Assembly: GCA_016840065.1 (NCBI GenBank)
Contig: JAEOTB010000012.1
Location: forward strand, 1-25,673
Direction: 5' to 3'
DNA length: 25,673 bases
Source: Candidatus Hermodarchaeota archaeon
Lineage (GTDB): Archaea; Asgardarchaeota; Hermodarchaeia; Hermodarchaeales; Hermodarchaeaceae
In this document: positions 7,138 to 15,835 of the stretch, piece by piece
Layout: each line of letters begins with the position of its first letter
Position numbering within the stretch: the stretch's first letter is position 1
The notes under the pieces: model-generated
Seen by the model: only the letters and a program-made list of their open reading frames with translations
Databases searched by the model: none
Told to the model about the DNA's origin: nothing
Translations under genes and position numbers: made by a program

Positions 7138-7247
7138 TGGATCGAACAAACCAGATCTTGTTTTAGCAGCAAGTTCTAACATCCATACTATATTCCACAA
7201 ACTATCAGCAAGAAACGAGGCCAACTGATAGTTTCAGAGGAAGGATG

Positions 7248-8360
7248 TTAGTGTATTGTTAGTCGGGCATCAGGGAGGAATAAGTGGTGACAATACCTGC
7301 ATTCAAGAAAGCCTGCAGGTGTGTGGGCTTCAAGGCCAATGTTACCGCCACATTGACTGCATTCATTTCCCAATGAAGTGTAAGGTTGGTATTTGAGAGC
7401 CTTACAGACGGAGCCAATTTGGGTGGCAAAGCGGTTCAGGATTTTCTCACCCTCCTCCTCTTCAAGGGCGTATAATCGAAGAACAACATTACCAGAGATG
7501 TGGGTGGAGGTCACTTGTAATTCAAGTAGAGCCTTATGACCGGAAAAACCCTCAACTATGTATTGAGCATAGGCTGTGAAGTTCTCACCAATGTAACCTT
7601 CATCTTCATCAAATACCGGGAGTCCTTTGAAGATGGCAGTGACGCTCTTGTAGATGGCTCCAGGATTCGTAATGTCAGGGTCGACATCGAAGGAGAATTC
7701 AGTCCAGATGATTGGAGCACCGCTCTTGATTCGACCCACAAGTTCTACCACTTCTTCGTCTGCAGAGCGACGGTATTGCTTCACCCGGTGAGAAAATTGG
7801 CGGTCTAGCTTTAGAGGTACGTCAAGATATTCCTTATCGGAAAGGCGTTTAATGAAAACGATAGTTGAAGGGGTCACCTCAACAGGTGGTGTAGGCCGTG
7901 ACTCCATAACACAAAGTTCAGTGTAGGTGCTGCTCTCCTCATCCCTTATTTCATGGACTACAACGGAGCCATAATCCCACACAGGGCCAATCAGGGTTTG
8001 AAAGAGTCTTGTTTCATCGGTTTCAGTGCTCCATCTCCCAGTGCCATATATTGAGTTAAGAGGAACGGCTAAGGTGATACTGTCTGCTGGCACAGGTTTG
8101 GCTTCATAGATAGAAACCCGATCGTTGTGTTTAAGGCGTCCCTGTATTCTGCTCCCCAATATAATGCGTTCGTGTTTGAGAGGTGAAGTAATGGTTTCGA
8201 CTTCACCAATTTCGGCTACTCTACAATAGACCTTGTCTGGGTTCTCGCTAATGATGAGTATGAATTTCCCTTGAGCCATCCAGGGCCTTGGTTTCCCCTT
8301 AATGTATAAATGGGCCTTGTATCGAAACTCCTCAAATTCCACTCTAAACTTCCCTTTCAT
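7248..8360 (-). CDS. Cdc48/p97 N-terminal-domain-like protein lacking an ATPase, with alpha/beta middle domain and C-terminal Zn ribbon
   Basis: DRVSIYEAKPVPADSITLAVP and LCVMESRPTPPVEVTPSTIVFI fit the Cdc48/VAT N-domain pattern. No Walker A. C-terminal CSQC-x15-CRYC. Confidence 0.65.
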   Translation of the reverse strand: MKGKFRVEFEEFRYKAHLYIKGKPRPWMAQGKFILIISENPDKVYCRVAEIGEVETITSPLKHERIILGSRIQGRLKHNDRVSIYEAKPVPADSITLAVPLNSIYGTGRWSTETDETRLFQTLIGPVWDYGSVVVHEIRDEESSTYTELCVMESRPTPPVEVTPSTIVFIKRLSDKEYLDVPLKLDRQFSHRVKQYRRSADEEVVELVGRIKSGAPIIWTEFSFDVDPDITNPGAIYKSVTAIFKGLPVFDEDEGYIGENFTAYAQYIVEGFSGHKALLELQVTSTHISGNVVLRLYALEEEEGEKILNRFATQIGSVCKALKYQPYTSLGNECSQCGGNIGLEAHTPAGFLECRYCHHLFLPDARLTIH

Positions 8361-8469: not shown

Positions 8470-9306
8470 ATGGTGTACGTCGCAATGGGAAGGGATGCGA
8501 AACGGTATGTACGCTTGAAGGAGCTTTCAGGATTCGTCAAGGTAAAATGGGATGTCCTCTTCAAGAAACACGTCGTGATAGCGGGTGTGGGTGGACTAGG
8601 TTCCATAGCTAGTGAAATGTTGACCCGCTGTGGAATCGGCACACTTTCCCTAATTGATATGGATGTAGTGAACGAGGAGAACCTGAACCGCCTCTTCTAT
8701 CGCACAGAACACATCGGTCAACGAAAAGTAGACGTGGCCAAGATCACCCTTGCCCAGGTTAATCCTGATGTTCACGTCGAAACCTATCACACAGATATAT
8801 GCGCCGAAGCCTTCGAACCGGTGTTAGAAAAATTACTCAAAAGATGTGACCTTCTTCTAATGGGGCTTGACAATCTCCCCAGTCGACAATATGTCAACGT
8901 GAAATGTGTTATCACTAAAACCCCTTATGTGGATGCAGGGGTCTCACGGAGCAGTTTATCAGGAAACGTGTTCTTCATAAAACCTCAGGAAACAGCCTGT
9001 GCAGAGTGTATCGGATTTGGACCCCCAATAAGGCACAAGAGGGGTCTACCCTGCAATGCTTCACTACCCACCACATTTGCCATCATCGCAGGCATCCAGG
9101 TTCAGCAAGCCCTGAAATATCTCTTAGGATTTGGAGCAACAAACAGATATCTAGCCTATGACGCCTTCTCCGATGAAATCACATTAGTACGATTTGATAA
9201 GAATCCAGATTGCCATATCTGCAGTGAAACCAGGAGAAGAAGAGCAAAGGCACCAAAAGCTAGCGCTGAAGAACTCGAAGCACTAGCCAGAGAACTAGAA
9301 GACTAG
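8470..9306 (+). CDS. uba5: E1-like activating enzyme (ThiF/MoeB superfamily), UBA5-like
   Basis: GVGGLGSIASEMLTRCGIG, NLNRLFY, Zn ligands C177/C180/C248/C251, catalytic-type C195 in CNASLPTT, and ALKYLLGFG. Human UBA5 as recalled: GVGGVGSVTAEMLTRCGIG, NMNRLFF, CAASLPTT, VLKFLLNFG. Confidence 0.88.
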   Translation: MVYVAMGRDAKRYVRLKELSGFVKVKWDVLFKKHVVIAGVGGLGSIASEMLTRCGIGTLSLIDMDVVNEENLNRLFYRTEHIGQRKVDVAKITLAQVNPDVHVETYHTDICAEAFEPVLEKLLKRCDLLLMGLDNLPSRQYVNVKCVITKTPYVDAGVSRSSLSGNVFFIKPQETACAECIGFGPPIRHKRGLPCNASLPTTFAIIAGIQVQQALKYLLGFGATNRYLAYDAFSDEITLVRFDKNPDCHICSETRRRRAKAPKASAEELEALARELED

Positions 9307-9314
9307 GATAGTTC

Positions 9315-10136
9315 CTAACCCGAATTCTCCCCTCTTTGTCGTTTTCTCCATTCGCTAACAATACAATTTAATTCAGAAACCCACCAGATGTAGATTTCTC
9401 GACTGAAGAAATGAGCAATGCCGTAGGTGGGTTTCCAGGCTCGTTTGAGCTCCTTCATATGATCGTGACATATCGGGTAGAATACCTTGCCATCTTCTTC
9501 GAAAGTAGGTTTCCTGTAGAACTTGCTTGTAAGACCACAGATTCTATCATCGAGAAAGGCACGGGGCATCACCTTAGGATATTCGCTACCTAAAACAACC
9601 CTCAAATCGAACTCCAAAGTGGGCTCTTCGGGCACTTTGATGAATCCCTTCCACTTCTGATAGTTGTCTCCATCCCTAGCACGGGGGACCAGCTGAAACC
9701 ACATGGGTGCTTTAAACCTCTTCATTAACAGATTCTTATAACGCACCATAAAGGCGAGTTCAACTTTGACTCGATCATACCAGTCTCGATCCCTTGGTGT
9801 GATGCGAGAAACTTCCTTTGGCATTTCCGGGAAATGTCTTTCAATTCCAGTATCGAAAACGTCCTCATCTGTCCCCACAATGGTTCGGGGGAGAATCCTG
9901 AAATTAGTACCATACTTTGCTACTACTTCCCCAACCGTTTCGCTTAGTAGATCATCAAGCATGCCGCGATGTTTCTCTTCGCTTTGTATGCTTGTCTCCT
10001 CCAAGGGCAGCCCAAGTTTCTTTATCACATCTCGAACTACTTCCTTGAATAATACGTCCGTGCCAACTACCACTGGTATCTGGTCCCTGCGGACCCCGAC
10101 TGTGGGTTTGAAGATAAGTTTGACCAATCCAAACAC
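9315..10136 (-). CDS. ufm1-ufc1: UFM1-like modifier fused to UFC1-like E2 conjugating enzyme
   Basis: aa 1-88 end in TVGEVVAKYGTNFRILPRTIVG (UFM1 recalled: [22 protein letters not shown]). The remainder has PRDRDWYDRVKVE, EFDL..YP..P, GLTSKFYR, ICHDH (C223), YGIAH (UFC1 recalled: PRDRELWVQRLKEE, EFDI..YP..P, GKTAKMYR, ICLTDH, FGLAH). Likely true start is the TTG at 10127, preceded by GGGTG. Confidence 0.88.
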   Translation of the reverse strand: MFGLVKLIFKPTVGVRRDQIPVVVGTDVLFKEVVRDVIKKLGLPLEETSIQSEEKHRGMLDDLLSETVGEVVAKYGTNFRILPRTIVGTDEDVFDTGIERHFPEMPKEVSRITPRDRDWYDRVKVELAFMVRYKNLLMKRFKAPMWFQLVPRARDGDNYQKWKGFIKVPEEPTLEFDLRVVLGSEYPKVMPRAFLDDRICGLTSKFYRKPTFEEDGKVFYPICHDHMKELKRAWKPTYGIAHFFSREIYIWWVSELNCIVSEWRKRQRGENSG

Positions 10137-10312: not shown

Positions 10313-11404
10313 TTGGTCAACGGAGTTGTATTGGAGGAAGCCATCAAAAACTACATTCAACACCGTGCAGCTGCGAGCAAAACAGAGGTGTATGGATGGC
10401 TTATCGGTTTTGATAATCCAAAAGGTGACGTGTTCATCACAGCGCCCCTAGACTGCACACGTTATGATAGGCAAAGCGTGAGCGATGCTGTACCCAACAT
10501 AGACGAGTTACATATAGTCTCCGCAATGATGATACAGGGCATGGGGATTGTGGGAATCTACCACTCACACCCAAGAGAAGTATTTCACAGCTCCACTGAT
10601 GACTACACAGTACAGACTTTGGCGAAGATGTATCCAAACATCGTATCCATTGTAACCAACGGCGATGAGACACGCTGTTACCGGCTTCTTGATGGAAAGA
10701 TTGGAGAAGTCTCCCCAACCCAAGAGACCTTGCCTCCCACCAATTATCTCAATTTCCAGTTACCCATCAAATCCCAAGTACACATTGGCAGCAAAACACG
10801 ACATGATCAAATAGATTCCTTGGTTTCTACTCAGCTACAAACAGCACTCCAGGATAGTCTTGAGAAATGCCATTTCAAGCTTGACGGTAAGCGTTTAAAA
10901 GACAAACAACGACTCAGCAAACTCCCATCTGGTAGTGCTGTTCTACTGCAACCCAGTCATTGGCAAATGCCCTCCAAGGATACCCTAACCCTCCAAGGGA
11001 GGCCTATTCTCACCTCAGTCGAGACAACCCTAAAAGCCCGTGTTATAGTAAGGGAAGGGGAACGGCTGAGAGATTTAAGAAATGCCATCGAAAACGAGTT
11101 AGCAGATGATTTAGTCCAGAAAATAGCGTCAGGCAAATACTTCCACAAGGAGAAACGTTACACACCTGCTCAAACTATCTTCATCAAATACTTGCAGGCC
11201 CATCTAAAACTCTACATACCCTTTGGTAAACCAGACCCAGACCAATACAATTACTGTAAAGAACTGGTCAACTCTGCACGACTTTTACTAAAACTCGGTA
11301 AACAGGCAGAAGCGTTGATCCTACTTCTCGGGCTGAGCAAATACTTTGGAGGAGTGGGAGACAAAGAACTCCAAAGCGAGGCAAAGGCAATCTCAGAATC
11401 CTAA
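10313..11404 (+). CDS. JAB/MPN+ (JAMM) metalloprotease with ~240-aa C-terminal extension
   Basis: E25 (EVYGWLIG) and H84-x-H86-x6-S93-x2-D96 (VGIYHSHPREVFHSSTD). Confidence 0.9.
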   Translation: MVNGVVLEEAIKNYIQHRAAASKTEVYGWLIGFDNPKGDVFITAPLDCTRYDRQSVSDAVPNIDELHIVSAMMIQGMGIVGIYHSHPREVFHSSTDDYTVQTLAKMYPNIVSIVTNGDETRCYRLLDGKIGEVSPTQETLPPTNYLNFQLPIKSQVHIGSKTRHDQIDSLVSTQLQTALQDSLEKCHFKLDGKRLKDKQRLSKLPSGSAVLLQPSHWQMPSKDTLTLQGRPILTSVETTLKARVIVREGERLRDLRNAIENELADDLVQKIASGKYFHKEKRYTPAQTIFIKYLQAHLKLYIPFGKPDPDQYNYCKELVNSARLLLKLGKQAEALILLLGLSKYFGGVGDKELQSEAKAISES

Positions 11405-11500: not shown

Positions 11501-12100
11501 ATGGGAATACTCGATAAAATACTCGGAAGAAACAAATTCGACTTAGAGCTTGTAGAGCGTCTGAAGGACAAGATAGACGACTTCATTCTCGACATCCGTA
11601 CAAAGGAACGAATGGCCAAACACCGAATCAAGAGGGCAATTGAGCAGAATCGTCAAGCGCCACCAGCTTTGCTTATGCAATGGAAGATGTCGAGAACACT
11701 ACTGCTTTCACTGGAAAACACTAGTGCGACTTTGGATACTGCCATAACCATGCGAACCTTCATGGAAGGTGTAGCAGAGATCCTTGGTACAAAGGAGATG
11801 GCAAAAGTAGGCGAAATGATGGGCAAAATCGCCACCGAGATGCGTACCATGAGCGCGGGCGTCAGCGAAATGATCAAGATGTCGAAGGGAATAGTGACCG
11901 GCTTGACACGGTTCACCGAGAAAACCGGTATTCAGATGGAGGAATTAAGTGCCATCGCGATGGATGCCTCCGAATCAGATTATTCAGAGATAACAAGAGA
12001 AATAGTCGGTGAAATCAGTGCAGATGACCCAGAGTTCGTCCGATCTCTTCCAAAGGAAACTCTAAGAGATCTAGGGATTGAGAAACAGAAAGGCTCCTAA
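11501..12100 (+). CDS. ESCRT-III/Snf7-like helical protein
   Basis: N-terminal amphipathic MGILDKILGRNK, basic helical hairpin, Met-rich middle helices, acidic C-terminus, ~200 aa. Ends 2 nt upstream of a MIT-AAA gene. Confidence 0.7.
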   Translation: MGILDKILGRNKFDLELVERLKDKIDDFILDIRTKERMAKHRIKRAIEQNRQAPPALLMQWKMSRTLLLSLENTSATLDTAITMRTFMEGVAEILGTKEMAKVGEMMGKIATEMRTMSAGVSEMIKMSKGIVTGLTRFTEKTGIQMEELSAIAMDASESDYSEITREIVGEISADDPEFVRSLPKETLRDLGIEKQKGS

Positions 12101-12102
12101 TC

Positions 12103-13281
12103 ATGGGAGGGCCGGGGAGGATTGCACTGTCTTCGATAAAGGAATTTAAGACCCTGCGGCAACTGCTTCGCGTGCAACTGCAAGCCCAGAAATACGCCGA
12201 GGCAATTGTCACTACTAAGAAGATTCTCACAATACTCAAGGGGCTCGAGTTGTCAGCTCCACAGGAGGTCAAGGATGTTTGGCGGAAAACCGCTGAAAGC
12301 TACAGGACCTTACTAGAAAAACTCGAGAAAACACCCAAGCAAATCGCTGCAATACCAGGGCAAGAGGAAACACCTGATGGTAGCATCGGTGCAGTTGACC
12401 TTCCAAAGGATTGCGCTGAAATGTTCTCCTCAGCCTCAAAGTCAACACTGGGTTTCAACGATCTTGCTGGACTAGAACAAGTCAAGGAGGACTTGAAGGA
12501 TAGCATCGAACTGCCCCTCAAATACCCAGACAAATGGCAGAAACTAGGTGTCAAATCAATATCTGGGCTTCTGCTATATGGTCCGCCAGGATGTGGCAAG
12601 ACCTATGTGGCCAAATGTGCATCTGGTCAATTCAACATCAGACTACTGGTGGCTGACCCATCGGTGGTCATGTCGAAGTACGTTGGCGAATCAGAGAAGG
12701 TCGTCGCCAAATTATTCAAGTGCGCACGAAAGGCAGCACCTGCCATTGTATTTGTCGATGAGGTGGACAAACTCATCCCCCTCGAATCCAAAGGATCTGA
12801 GGTGCCACAGCGAGTGGAGGCACAGTTCCTCCAAGAGATGAGTGGCATAAAGCCTGAAAGCAACTTCATCGTCGTTATGGCAACAAATGAGCCCTGGAAC
12901 CTGAATCCAGCAATCATTCGCCCCGGTAGGATTGACCGATGGGTGTATGTCCCGGAACCTGACAGAGAGACTCGACAGCGAATATTCGAGTTAAACCTCT
13001 CAGGTTTGACCATTTCAGGCGAAGTGAGTTACTATAAACTCGCAGCAATGACGGAACCTACAGATACGCGCTGTTATGCAGCTTCAGATATTACAGCCAT
13101 TTGTGAGGACATCAGGCTTCACATCGCAAAGGACTGGGCAGAAACGGACATCCTGTCACCTGTTACGATGCAACGGGTCAAGGATGCTATGAAGAAGGTC
13201 AGGCCCTCAATCTCCAAGCAACAAATCTCACGATACATCAAATGGGGCAAGGACCCCAAGGCAACTGGACGGAGTGTTTAG
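12103..13281 (+). CDS. vps4: MIT-domain single-cassette AAA+ ATPase, Vps4/CdvC-like
   Basis: MIT-like N-terminus (QKYAEAI...VKDVWRKTAESYRTLLEKLE), Walker A GPPGCGKT, pore loop SKYVGESEK, Walker B IVFVDE, ATNEPW, C-terminal VRPSISKQQISRYIKW. Confidence 0.8.
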   Translation: MGGPGRIALSSIKEFKTLRQLLRVQLQAQKYAEAIVTTKKILTILKGLELSAPQEVKDVWRKTAESYRTLLEKLEKTPKQIAAIPGQEETPDGSIGAVDLPKDCAEMFSSASKSTLGFNDLAGLEQVKEDLKDSIELPLKYPDKWQKLGVKSISGLLLYGPPGCGKTYVAKCASGQFNIRLLVADPSVVMSKYVGESEKVVAKLFKCARKAAPAIVFVDEVDKLIPLESKGSEVPQRVEAQFLQEMSGIKPESNFIVVMATNEPWNLNPAIIRPGRIDRWVYVPEPDRETRQRIFELNLSGLTISGEVSYYKLAAMTEPTDTRCYAASDITAICEDIRLHIAKDWAETDILSPVTMQRVKDAMKKVRPSISKQQISRYIKWGKDPKATGRSV

Positions 13282-13284
13282 AAA

Positions 13285-13947
13285 ATGTTCTTTAGAAGAA
13301 AACCAACTGTAGAAAGAATCGTTGAACGAATCATCAAAATAGGTAAGGAATTACGGGACGCCGGTCAACCAAGTAAGATGAGAGAACTTGCGCGAGATGC
13401 TGCAGGTTTGATAAGAGATGTAACATACGATCAGCGAGAAGAAATCTGGTCATCAGTCAATCTAGAATATTTCAACGAATCAATTGCCTACTATCAACGT
13501 CAAGTTGATGACGCATATCGCCGATTACACAACGAACTTTCTAAAATGCGTAAATTGAAAGAGCAAGGACAACCAATCCCGGATAGTATAGTGGGACTTG
13601 TGAAAGAGCTAGAACTAGAGCTAGACGAAGAATATGCCCTTCTACACCTTCACAAAAGCCGTCAATTGCTGATAAGGCGAATTGTGAAAATGGGACGAAC
13701 CCCAGATCAAGCTGTGAAAGAAAGCATCCGACATACACAGCTATCCCAGGCGCACTTCATGAAACTGCGACACCAGTGGGGAATGTATAAGGAACTAAGC
13801 CGGGAATGGGGATCTGCAGATGAACTACTTGATAAATACGGGTCGCTAGATTATGAATCACCACCTGTAACTGAATCATCCGCAGAAGCCACAGAGGAGC
13901 AGAGTGAAGCAGATCGTCTACTTGAAAAATATAAAGAAGAAGGATGA
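13285..13947 (+). CDS. Coiled-coil protein, possibly a divergent ESCRT-III/PspA-like subunit
   Basis: MFFRRK N-terminus, long helical hairpin, acidic tail with duplicated AD(E/R)LL(D/E)KY. 3 nt after the ATPase; ATGA overlap with the next gene. Confidence 0.6.
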   Translation: MFFRRKPTVERIVERIIKIGKELRDAGQPSKMRELARDAAGLIRDVTYDQREEIWSSVNLEYFNESIAYYQRQVDDAYRRLHNELSKMRKLKEQGQPIPDSIVGLVKELELELDEEYALLHLHKSRQLLIRRIVKMGRTPDQAVKESIRHTQLSQAHFMKLRHQWGMYKELSREWGSADELLDKYGSLDYESPPVTESSAEATEEQSEADRLLEKYKEEG

Positions 13948-14768
13948 CAGAAATCACCTTTATCCCAACTGAGCAGGCCATTCGAGATGTTTTACGCGAA
14001 ATCGAGAAGATGCGGCGTGGCATCCTTAGCCCCCACGCTATTACCATTGAGGCTACGCGATTCTCCTTTTCCAAGGGAAGATTTGGAGGCGGAGGTCTTA
14101 AAGAGAAACGTGTAACAGGTGACCTGCTAGCCATCTGTCCTGTTCTCAAGGAAAACATCGAGTCTGCGAAGGGATTGGGTGATAACCGGGATCTACAGAT
14201 ACAGATTATGCTACGAGTACTCAAAGAATTTCAGTTGGTAAGAAAGGGCGTAGATAGTCTTCGCCAGGCGTTTCACCTCATTGACCGCCTTGAAGCAATA
14301 ACAGATATTGGCCACCCAAAGTCCTTCACCAAAGCCCTCAAGAAGGTCCAATTAAAAATCGAATCCATCCAGCTCCAGCTCTTACTGAACGGTACCCACA
14401 ATCTCGACATCCTCACAGAACTTGAAGCAAGGGTTGAGAAGCTAGAAGCGCAAGTTAAACAGCACCTAGCAGCACCCAGCTTTTCCGAACCGACCATTGA
14501 CGATGTAGAACCCAGTACTACCGTTGAACCCGACACATCACCATTAACACCTGAGGATGCAGCTGAAGCACTCGAAGAATGGCCAAAAGATGATGTGGAA
14601 AAATCCTTCTCACAACTTGATGCGATAATCAAGAAAATGAAGACCGAGGGGCTCACAGAAGCCCCAGTTGGAGACATAGAGCCTAAAATCGTCCGTGCCT
14701 ACATGATCACCCACGATACAAGAATGAGGTATGACATCGTCCAACACAGAATCGTAGACGACGAATAG
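13944..14768 (+). CDS. Hypothetical protein (helical domain, coiled coil, acidic Pro/Thr linker, small C-terminal domain)
   Basis: Translationally coupled by ATGA overlap; LTELEARVEKLEAQVK coiled coil; no family recognised. Confidence 0.75.
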   Translation: MTEITFIPTEQAIRDVLREIEKMRRGILSPHAITIEATRFSFSKGRFGGGGLKEKRVTGDLLAICPVLKENIESAKGLGDNRDLQIQIMLRVLKEFQLVRKGVDSLRQAFHLIDRLEAITDIGHPKSFTKALKKVQLKIESIQLQLLLNGTHNLDILTELEARVEKLEAQVKQHLAAPSFSEPTIDDVEPSTTVEPDTSPLTPEDAAEALEEWPKDDVEKSFSQLDAIIKKMKTEGLTEAPVGDIEPKIVRAYMITHDTRMRYDIVQHRIVDDE

Positions 14769-14800
14769 AAAAATTGAATACTCTCTGGAGGGAAGAAGAT

Positions 14801-15835
14801 ATGAGCGAATGTGAGCAATACCTGAAAAGAGCCAAGAAAGCTGCAAGTGTACTCAAACGGGATTGGTGGACAGCTGGAAGCCACTTTCGGCTGGCAGCAG
14901 ACTGCTTTGAGAACCATGGGAAATGGAAAGAAGCTGCTGATGCCTACCTACAGGCTTGCGAAGCCTTGGGAAAGTATGATAGGGATGAGCGGATGAGCCG
15001 GGAAGGACAGGTACAAACCGCCATCAAGGGAATATTCTGTACTAGTAAAGTAGACAAAGCAGATAGGAATCTTGTTGCAGTTGAATACCTCCTCAAGGTT
15101 CTCACAGCTTTGGATGAACAAATCCTTCGGGAGTTCCTAGAAGTGCATGATTACTCTCAAGCCATTGTGCTTGTTGAAGCGATTGTCGTTGGTTCAAGGT
15201 TTGTGAACAAATCCGAACAAGCCACCGAATACGGGAGAAAACTCGCTATCCTCTATCGCGACTATTCGAAGCTACTTATGGGGCGTCGTGGAATCGATAA
15301 GGCATTTACACTCCTCTCCAAAGGCATTATCAAAGTAACGGCATTAGCGAAACGAAAGGATGTCAACATGCTCATGAAGCAGTATTTTGAAATGCTCTCC
15401 ACCCAAGTGGACATACTAATCGGAAAGAGTGATTGTCAATCAGCAGCCACTACCCTCCACACACGAATAAGAGAGCTTGCCCAATGCGCTTCTGGGAAAA
15501 TCGTCAATCCCTACACATCCAGGTTTCTAAAGCAGATTTCTCAACGGGCAGAGAAACTTTCTGGACCTTGCAAGGAAGTACTGGGTAACGCGGTCACAAT
15601 GTTAGAACCTAGCCCTACCACAGGAACCGAAGCAGATCTAGAAGAGTTAGATGATACAGTGGAAAGCCCTGTAGCTGATGACTTGGAAAGCGAGATATTT
15701 GCAGTGCAGGAATCTATCAAGGCCTTGGAGAAGAAATTCGACGATGGCCTCGTCTCAACCCCTGACTATACTCGTTTACTGCGAGGATACTACAAGTCCC
15801 TCTACACTTTACGATTAAAGCTGGAGAAGGAATAG
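14801..15835 (+). CDS. SNAP-like TPR/alpha-solenoid protein with C-terminal steadiness-box (ESCRT-I)-like hairpin
   Basis: ATG 14801 follows GGAGG (the ORF track starts at TTG 14774). N-terminus EQYLKRAKKA...DWWTAGSHFRLAADCFENHGKWKEAADAYLQA; C-terminus AVQESIKALEKKFDDGLVSTPDYTRLLRGYYKSLYTLRLKL. Confidence 0.65.
   Translation: MSECEQYLKRAKKAASVLKRDWWTAGSHFRLAADCFENHGKWKEAADAYLQACEALGKYDRDERMSREGQVQTAIKGIFCTSKVDKADRNLVAVEYLLKVLTALDEQILREFLEVHDYSQAIVLVEAIVVGSRFVNKSEQATEYGRKLAILYRDYSKLLMGRRGIDKAFTLLSKGIIKVTALAKRKDVNMLMKQYFEMLSTQVDILIGKSDCQSAATTLHTRIRELAQCASGKIVNPYTSRFLKQISQRAEKLSGPCKEVLGNAVTMLEPSPTTGTEADLEELDDTVESPVADDLESEIFAVQESIKALEKKFDDGLVSTPDYTRLLRGYYKSLYTLRLKLEKE

Follow-up and report, generated by a model that had tools for sequence, protein, structure and literature searches.

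The stretch of DNA analysed here, hereafter the window, comprises 25,673 nucleotides of a Candidatus Hermodarchaeota contig (JAEOTB010000012.1) and carries a gene for a JAMM-type protease with a long C-terminal extension, together with genes for a UFM1-like tag fused to a UFC1-like E2, a UBA5-type E1 and a 370-aa protein (Table 1). The 363-aa protease ORF opens with a TTG start codon, and a Shine-Dalgarno-like GAAGGA lies 7-13 nt 5' of this start. A spacer of 176 bp separates the ORF from the 273-aa tag-E2 fusion gene (9315-10136, -), which is read from the opposite strand, so that the two genes are divergent, as an earlier preliminary description of this DNA had claimed. The best PDB sequence matches of the E1 are to UBA5 (E 2e-43, versus 1e-25 for MoeB), and residues 104-261 of the fusion score 39.4 bits with Pfam UFC1 (cut-off 25). 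The tag is only weakly UFM1-like in sequence: Pfam Ufm1 matches 3 of its 25 members (best E 0.044) and has no match in the source genome, and a profile of the tag retrieved no UFM1 chain from the PDB sequences. Pfam UFC1 detects just 7 of 400 Asgard genomes and is therefore unusable for co-occurrence counts.

Table 1. Positions in the window of the protease gene, its predicted parts and the neighbouring cassette genes
Feature	Position	Strand	Basis
JAMM-CTD protease gene, 363 aa + stop	10313..11404	+	ORF; ~100 family representatives at E<1e-10; AF2 pLDDT 93.8
JAMM/MPN+ catalytic domain (predicted), residues 1-137	10313..10723	+	Pfam PF14464 and PF01398 above cut-offs; VIA match to 6fno_B
Glu25 codon, JAMM general base (putative)	10385..10387	+	E in 46/47 family rows with a residue there
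Zinc-site motif H84-S-H86-x6-S93-x2-D96-D97	10562..10603	+	Family conservation
C-terminal UfSP2_N-like domain, residues 138-363, about six main strands and five helices	10724..11401	+	Model, Foldseek, VIA
First strand-helix unit, residues 145-184	10745..10864	+	DSSP on model
Second strand-helix unit, residues 232-272	11006..11128	+	DSSP on model
Terminal three-helix bundle, residues 309-362	11237..11398	+	Model
UFM1-like tag domain of fusion, residues 1-88, ending R84-T-I-V-G88, proposed substrate	9873..10136	-	Conservation; predicted complex
Linker and UFC1-like E2 part of fusion	9315..9872	-	Pfam UFC1
UBA5-type E1	8470..9306	+	PDB sequence matches
370-aa protein, no Pfam family, fourth conserved cassette gene	7248..8360	-	In 24/30 loci beside E1

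The protease belongs to a widespread Asgard family. A word-indexed homologue search returned only five relatives. Only an exhaustive profile search gave access to the family, with 135 representatives at E<=1e-3, of which 100 also lie at E<=1e-10; many representatives are full-length. Members are present in 53 of 400 Asgard genomes and in 28 of 85 genera. One Asgard genome has two copies of the gene, the second of which (G241:C77:57069-58259) contains a single in-frame TAG.

Related loci were retrieved with a 5-row protease alignment and carry the labels Hermodarchaeota (the closest, at 63% identity), Promethearchaeota (Loki), Heimdallarchaeota and Odinarchaeota; two complete Heimdallarchaeum genomes are among them. 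These loci reveal a conserved Asgard cassette whose usual order, on a single strand, is 370-aa protein, UBA5-like E1, JAMM, UFM1-like tag and UFC1-like E2. In the 30 loci with long flanks, on which our synteny counts are based, the E1 adjoins the JAMM gene in every case and the tag/UFC1-like gene does so in 29. The spacing varies at single loci, with a 350-aa ORF (7203-8253) between the JAMM and tag genes of locus L062 and about 2.5 kb between the E1 and JAMM genes of L055. For the 370-aa protein we can offer only a guess, namely that it is an adaptor or E3-like. At its C-terminal end the residues form a Cys-x2-Cys...Cys-x2-Cys/His pattern, which can be aligned to the homologue from Loki.

None of the other window genes recurs in the 30 related loci. 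This includes the ESCRT-III-like gene, the Vps4-like AAA gene and the genes that follow them (window 11501-15835), relatives of which occur within 6 kb in none of the 30 loci. Linkage of these genes to the cassette is thus confined to the source lineage, and we rejected a functional coupling to these downstream genes as a general feature of the system.

The JAMM domain and its C-terminal extension

Residues 9-113 of the protease score above the cut-offs of two Pfam families, Prok-JAB (34.8 bits, cut-off 25) and JAB (25.2 bits, cut-off 22.5). The closest solved chains by sequence are small prokaryotic JAMM proteins, the bacterial BilC deubiquitinase and the Caldiarchaeum Rpn11 homolog, and the MPN part of our model superimposes on the latter (6fno_B) with a VIA Z of 18.9 and an rmsd of 1.7 over 133 residues. 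Conservation was counted on a 53-member alignment (A2), the denominators being the rows with a residue at the column in question. H84 is kept in 49/49 rows, H86, S93 and D96 each in 48/49, and D97 in 40/49. Since residue 94 varies within the family, the family motif reads HxH-x6-S-x2-D; with S93 taken as the motif serine, the spacer falls one residue short of the canonical x7. The earlier claim that the JAMM gene is intact thus agrees with the retention of E25, H84, H86, S93 and D96, which are near-invariant across the family. Judged by this motif, the protein is apparently an active zinc protease.

AlphaFold2, run on alignment A2, gave a confident model of the whole protein as a single body (mean pLDDT 93.8, pTM 0.91), and the extension, residues 138-363, reached a pLDDT of 95.6 when folded separately. 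In sequence the extension is weakly conserved, column identity averaging 18%. Two strand-helix units had been described in it from the sequence, and both are present in the model, the first as strand 145-158 and helix 164-184, the second as strand 232-245 and helix 252-272. No membrane anchor is found, as follows from a maximal 19-residue Kyte-Doolittle mean of 1.36 and a hydrophilic C-terminal bundle.

The preliminary description had further claimed a resemblance of the extension to the N-terminal domain of UFSP2 and to ODR4, and had proposed a Foldseek comparison with these proteins. Run with residues 138-363 against 350,542 PDB chains, Foldseek returned UfSP2/UfSP as the only significant matches: mouse UfSP2 (3oqc, E 2e-5) and C. 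elegans UfSP (5xda and 5ejj, E 8e-5 to 3e-3), the next-best match having an E of 0.014 and a probability of 0.18. Realignment with VIA gave a Z of 9.2 to 3oqc_A (rmsd 4.0, 178 residues) and of 8.9 to 5xda_E, where the matched part of the chain (133-350) is the stretch directly after the MPN domain of that protein. The published six strands and five helices of the UfSP2 N-domain fit the model of the extension. When 48,161 representative chains were aligned exhaustively, without the use of Foldseek, mouse UfSP2 and C. elegans UfSP were the only proteins whose match extended across the beta-rich part, with Z scores of 8.4 (176 residues) and 7.7 (182 residues), all other top rows matching just the last 55 residues, a generic three-helix bundle. 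These Z scores of 7.7-9.2 for the extension are in the middling range for the tool, with rmsd values of 4-5 Å and a Foldseek TM by query of 0.39-0.46.

The likeness turned out to be wider than had been claimed, extending to the whole protein. When the complete model was searched against the PDB, the eight best Foldseek chains were all C. elegans UfSP (5xda, 5ejj; E 1.7e-8, about 350 columns), the Caldiarchaeum Rpn11 homolog ranking behind them. Upon realignment 277 residues are matched collinearly, residues 1-363 of the model to residues 11-430 of the chain, with a VIA Z of 15.1. In the ESM Atlas, where the comparison is between predicted models on both sides, the whole model matches representatives of the ODR-4 cluster (PF14778) with a TM of 0.67 by query (312/363 residues, rmsd 4.4), of an insect UFSP2 cluster (C78 + UfSP2_N + UFSP2_MPN_insect) with a TM of 0.68 over 314 residues, and of a plant UFSP2 cluster with a TM of 0.72 over 332 residues, as against just 0.37-0.51 for other JAMM proteins. 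Because it is the whole protein that matches the predicted ODR4 and plant and insect UFSP2, the homologous unit would be MPN plus extension and not the extension alone.

No corresponding signal was found at the level of sequence. Searched against Pfam with 53 members, the extension was hit by none of the 25 families listed out of 39 matched, so that neither UfSP2_N nor ODR4 appears on it there, and its profile retrieved no UfSP chain from the PDB sequences, giving only designed helical bundles and ZapA (E>0.009). A language-model atlas search of the extension gave TPR-like clusters only, with a score of 0.77 that is below the lead threshold. An ODR4-like Pfam match is sub-threshold (15.9 bits versus a cut-off of 24.5) and falls inside the MPN core, at residues 67-110; the ODR4 profile (PF14778) matches 2 of 53 family members at E<=1.

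The terminal three-helix bundle matches generic three-helix bundles only, MIT domains included (Z 7-9). Against the MIT domains of Vps4/SKD1, spartin and katanin, residues 309-362 reach a Z of about 7, and an ESCRT-III-like gene is adjacent in the window. An assignment of the bundle as a MIT domain was nevertheless rejected, as designed and TPR bundles score equally well or better and the bundle forms part of the region aligned with UfSP2.

Tag forms and the proposed role of the enzyme

In the tag, R84, V87 and G88 are the same in all 25 homologues, while the residues that follow the glycine in fused forms vary. Three states of the tag gene occur in the cassettes: a standalone gene with Val-Gly directly before the stop (about 17 distinct cassettes), a standalone gene with 1-3 extra residues after the Gly (two loci, L021 and L034), and an in-frame fusion to the UFC1-like E2 (about 10 cassettes, including that of the window). 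The protease and its motif are retained in all three. Fused forms were seen in records labelled Loki, Hermod and Heimdall.

Structure prediction for the protease together with tag residues 1-100 gave an ipSAE of 0.81 (median of three runs), with 0.00 for the best control; at least 79% of contacts are shared between runs, and the partner pLDDT is at least 74. The prediction thereby passes the mark used, which was also passed by 58 of 80 solved complexes and by 2 of 110 mismatched pairs. In the predicted interface, JAMM residues 32-34, 59-80 and 95-110 and extension helices 166-176 and 258-272 meet the tag, including its tail (80-89), and E262, kept in 33 of 53 members, is the best conserved interface residue of the extension. 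The prediction supports binding of the protease to the tag of its own cassette, but since JAMM-ubiquitin and UfSP-Ufm1 complexes have already been solved, the pass may reflect likeness to these.

Taken together, we propose that the protein is a soluble zinc isopeptidase of two domains, with the UFM1-like tag encoded in the same cassette as its dedicated substrate, an explanation to which, as a whole, we assign a probability of roughly 0.68. According to this proposal, the N-terminal JAMM domain would provide the zinc site and do the cutting, and the UfSP2_N-like domain, packed on the JAMM domain, would help to hold the globular part of the tag, such that its R-x-x-V-G tail is placed in the catalytic groove. 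What the analysis establishes is the domain architecture, the intact motif, the linkage within the cassette and the match in fold; we infer catalysis, the substrate and the site of cleavage. The source genome encodes the tag in one chain with the UFC1-like E2, so that the enzyme would have to begin by cleaving behind Gly88, yielding mature tag and free E2; across the family, the conserved job would be the removal of the tag from modified proteins.

A narrower role was suggested in the preliminary description, which saw in the JAMM protein the likely maturase, in place of a UFSP-type protease that it did not find in the window. No Peptidase_C78 match was obtained in the source genome (83.9% complete) or in 400 Asgard genomes, in a search run without a positive control. 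Maturation is plausible for the fusion in the window, which could not be activated without a cut, and the cassette has no other protease that could expose Gly88 in a precursor or fused tag. As an account of the family, however, it is incomplete, because the about 17 cassettes in which the tag already ends in Val-Gly before the stop keep the JAMM gene, with its motif intact. The retention of the protease in all three tag states means that maturation cannot be its sole conserved role, and its presence beside ready-made tags points to tag removal from targets as the probable conserved role. We thus consider an enzyme that only matures the tag, with no part in deconjugation, quite unlikely; deconjugation is the simplest common function, to which cutting of the fusion would have been added in the fused lineages.

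One may also imagine that the protein acts mainly as a scaffold or adaptor in the manner of ODR4, gathering the tag, the E1 or the E2 with little or no proteolysis, in which case the fusion would either stay intact or be cleaved by a different protease, for instance another JAMM enzyme of the genome. Its eukaryotic structural counterparts are indeed non-catalytic scaffolds, other Asgard genomes encode an inactive paralogue of the same architecture, and three further JAMM genes are found elsewhere in the source genome. Against this, the catalytic residues are retained by nearly all cassette-linked members, a pattern that would not be accounted for by purifying selection if the protein were purely a scaffold, and the inactive paralogue sits outside the cassette. 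We therefore regard a mainly scaffolding role as very unlikely. An equally improbable alternative concerns the fold itself: the likeness to ODR4/UFSP2 might be due to convergence or to a common alpha/beta arrangement, in which case an Rpn11-like JAMM protein would merely have acquired an unrelated accessory domain. The absence of a sequence-level link between the extension and UfSP2_N/ODR4, the middling Z scores and the rmsd of 4-5 Å are in line with such a view. It does not explain, however, why among 48,161 representatives UfSP chains alone cover the beta-rich part and are also the sole significant Foldseek matches, why the domain order is collinear with C. elegans UfSP over 277 aligned residues, or why the whole protein is closer to ODR4/UFSP2 (TM 0.67-0.72) than to other JAMM proteins (0.37-0.51). 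Moreover, the fold match falls within the same pathway, that of UFM1. We accordingly retain the tag-dedicated isopeptidase as the preferred reading.

Comparison with known systems

In its JAMM domain, the protease has the active MPN+ fold of the Caldiarchaeum Rpn11 homolog (6fno) and of Pyrococcus JAMM1 (5lda), with Z scores of 17-19, and like other archaeal JAMM Ubl proteases it has an operon link to an E1/E2/tag system. The Caldiarchaeum enzyme is reported to combine two such roles, processing of the ubiquitin precursor and deconjugation, with ubiquitinated proteins as substrates (PMC6043591). The Caldiarchaeum and Pyrococcus enzymes are single-domain chains of 130-150 residues, to which the Asgard protease adds a UfSP2_N-like domain of 226 residues. 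Furthermore, their substrates are ubiquitin or SAMP tags with a Gly-Gly end, whereas the tag of the Asgard cassette has a Val-Gly end and goes with a UBA5/UFC1-type cascade.

Two eukaryotic protein families share the architecture as a whole. ODR4/C1orf27 (PF14778), the ER-anchored partner of UFSP2, has like the protease an MPN domain followed by a UFSP2-N-like domain, and both proteins belong to a UFM1-type pathway. This domain composition of ODR4/C1orf27 has been described, as has that of ODR8, in which MPN and the same domain are joined to a catalytic domain (PMC13137144). ODR4, however, is a pseudoenzyme without the JAMM residues and has a C-terminal membrane anchor, whereas the Asgard protease keeps E25, H84, H86, S93 and D96 and is devoid of a hydrophobic anchor. 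In C. elegans UfSP/ODR-8 and in the long-form UFSP2 of plants and insects (PF26560 + PF20908 + PF07910), an MPN + UfSP2_N module is collinear with the protease. In these proteins the MPN domain is dead and cutting is performed by a C-terminal papain-like C78 domain; the Asgard protease, in contrast, has an intact JAMM site and no C78 domain. The N-domain of mouse UfSP2 (3oqc; PF20908) is the best PDB match of the extension, at 8-13% identity and with no sequence-profile signal, but mouse UfSP2 has no MPN domain ahead of it, unlike the Asgard protease. Given its intact active site and its lack of both an anchor and a C78 domain, the protease is thus placed outside both eukaryotic families, with which it shares the scaffold architecture.

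In eukaryotes, the MPN + extension architecture would live on, stripped of its catalytic residues, as ODR4 and as the N-terminal part of long-form UFSP2. This points to a scaffold that was retained while the domain responsible for cutting was exchanged. Common descent with ODR4 and UFSP2 is what we infer from the fold match. With this in mind, one may speculate that the Asgard family is directly ancestral both to ODR4 and to the MPN-N-domain module of ancestral UFSP2, the first deUFMylase having been a JAMM enzyme; in early eukaryotes the gene would then have been duplicated, one copy gaining by fusion a papain-like C78 domain as its new catalytic unit, and both dead copies would have persisted as the scaffold of the ER deUFMylase complex. 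We put this direct-ancestor scenario at somewhat less than even odds. ODR4 and UFSP2 have been proposed to derive from a three-domain ODR8-like protein (PMC13137144), and our comparison suggests an older, two-domain ancestor, itself the protease, that preceded this ODR8-like protein. UFM1, UFC1 and UFSP2 have been stated to be exclusively eukaryotic (PMC10183829). Ufm1 homologues have been reported in nine Asgard clades, in a paper that does not mention UFC1, UBA5, a JAMM enzyme or ODR4 (PMC12962969). In our literature search, which had subscription journals outside its coverage, no paper was found that links ODR4 or UFSP2 to an archaeal JAMM enzyme. The proposal provides a testable account of why the eukaryotic deUFMylase complex contains two dead MPN-type scaffolds, and the protease would offer a small soluble enzyme in which to study how UfSP2_N-type domains recognise UFM1-like tags. 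The inactive Asgard paralogue is an archaeal dead-MPN counterpart of ODR4, and if the direct-ancestor scenario were true, its presence in some Asgard genomes would place the onset of the loss of activity in archaea.

The proteins of this paralogous family, 340-375 aa long, show homology to the JAMM-CTD protein as a whole (hhalign probability 97.8%, E 1e-12, 321 columns) and lack E25, the HxH and the S..D motif (L037:3977-5101 (-); proteins P0139-P0150). Five of the 11 paralogue-bearing genomes of one family of genomes (f12) gave no match to the tag-E2 protein of the window. In these 11, out of the 12 genomes of that family, the paralogue lies between pyruvate kinase and an epimerase, outside the cassette.
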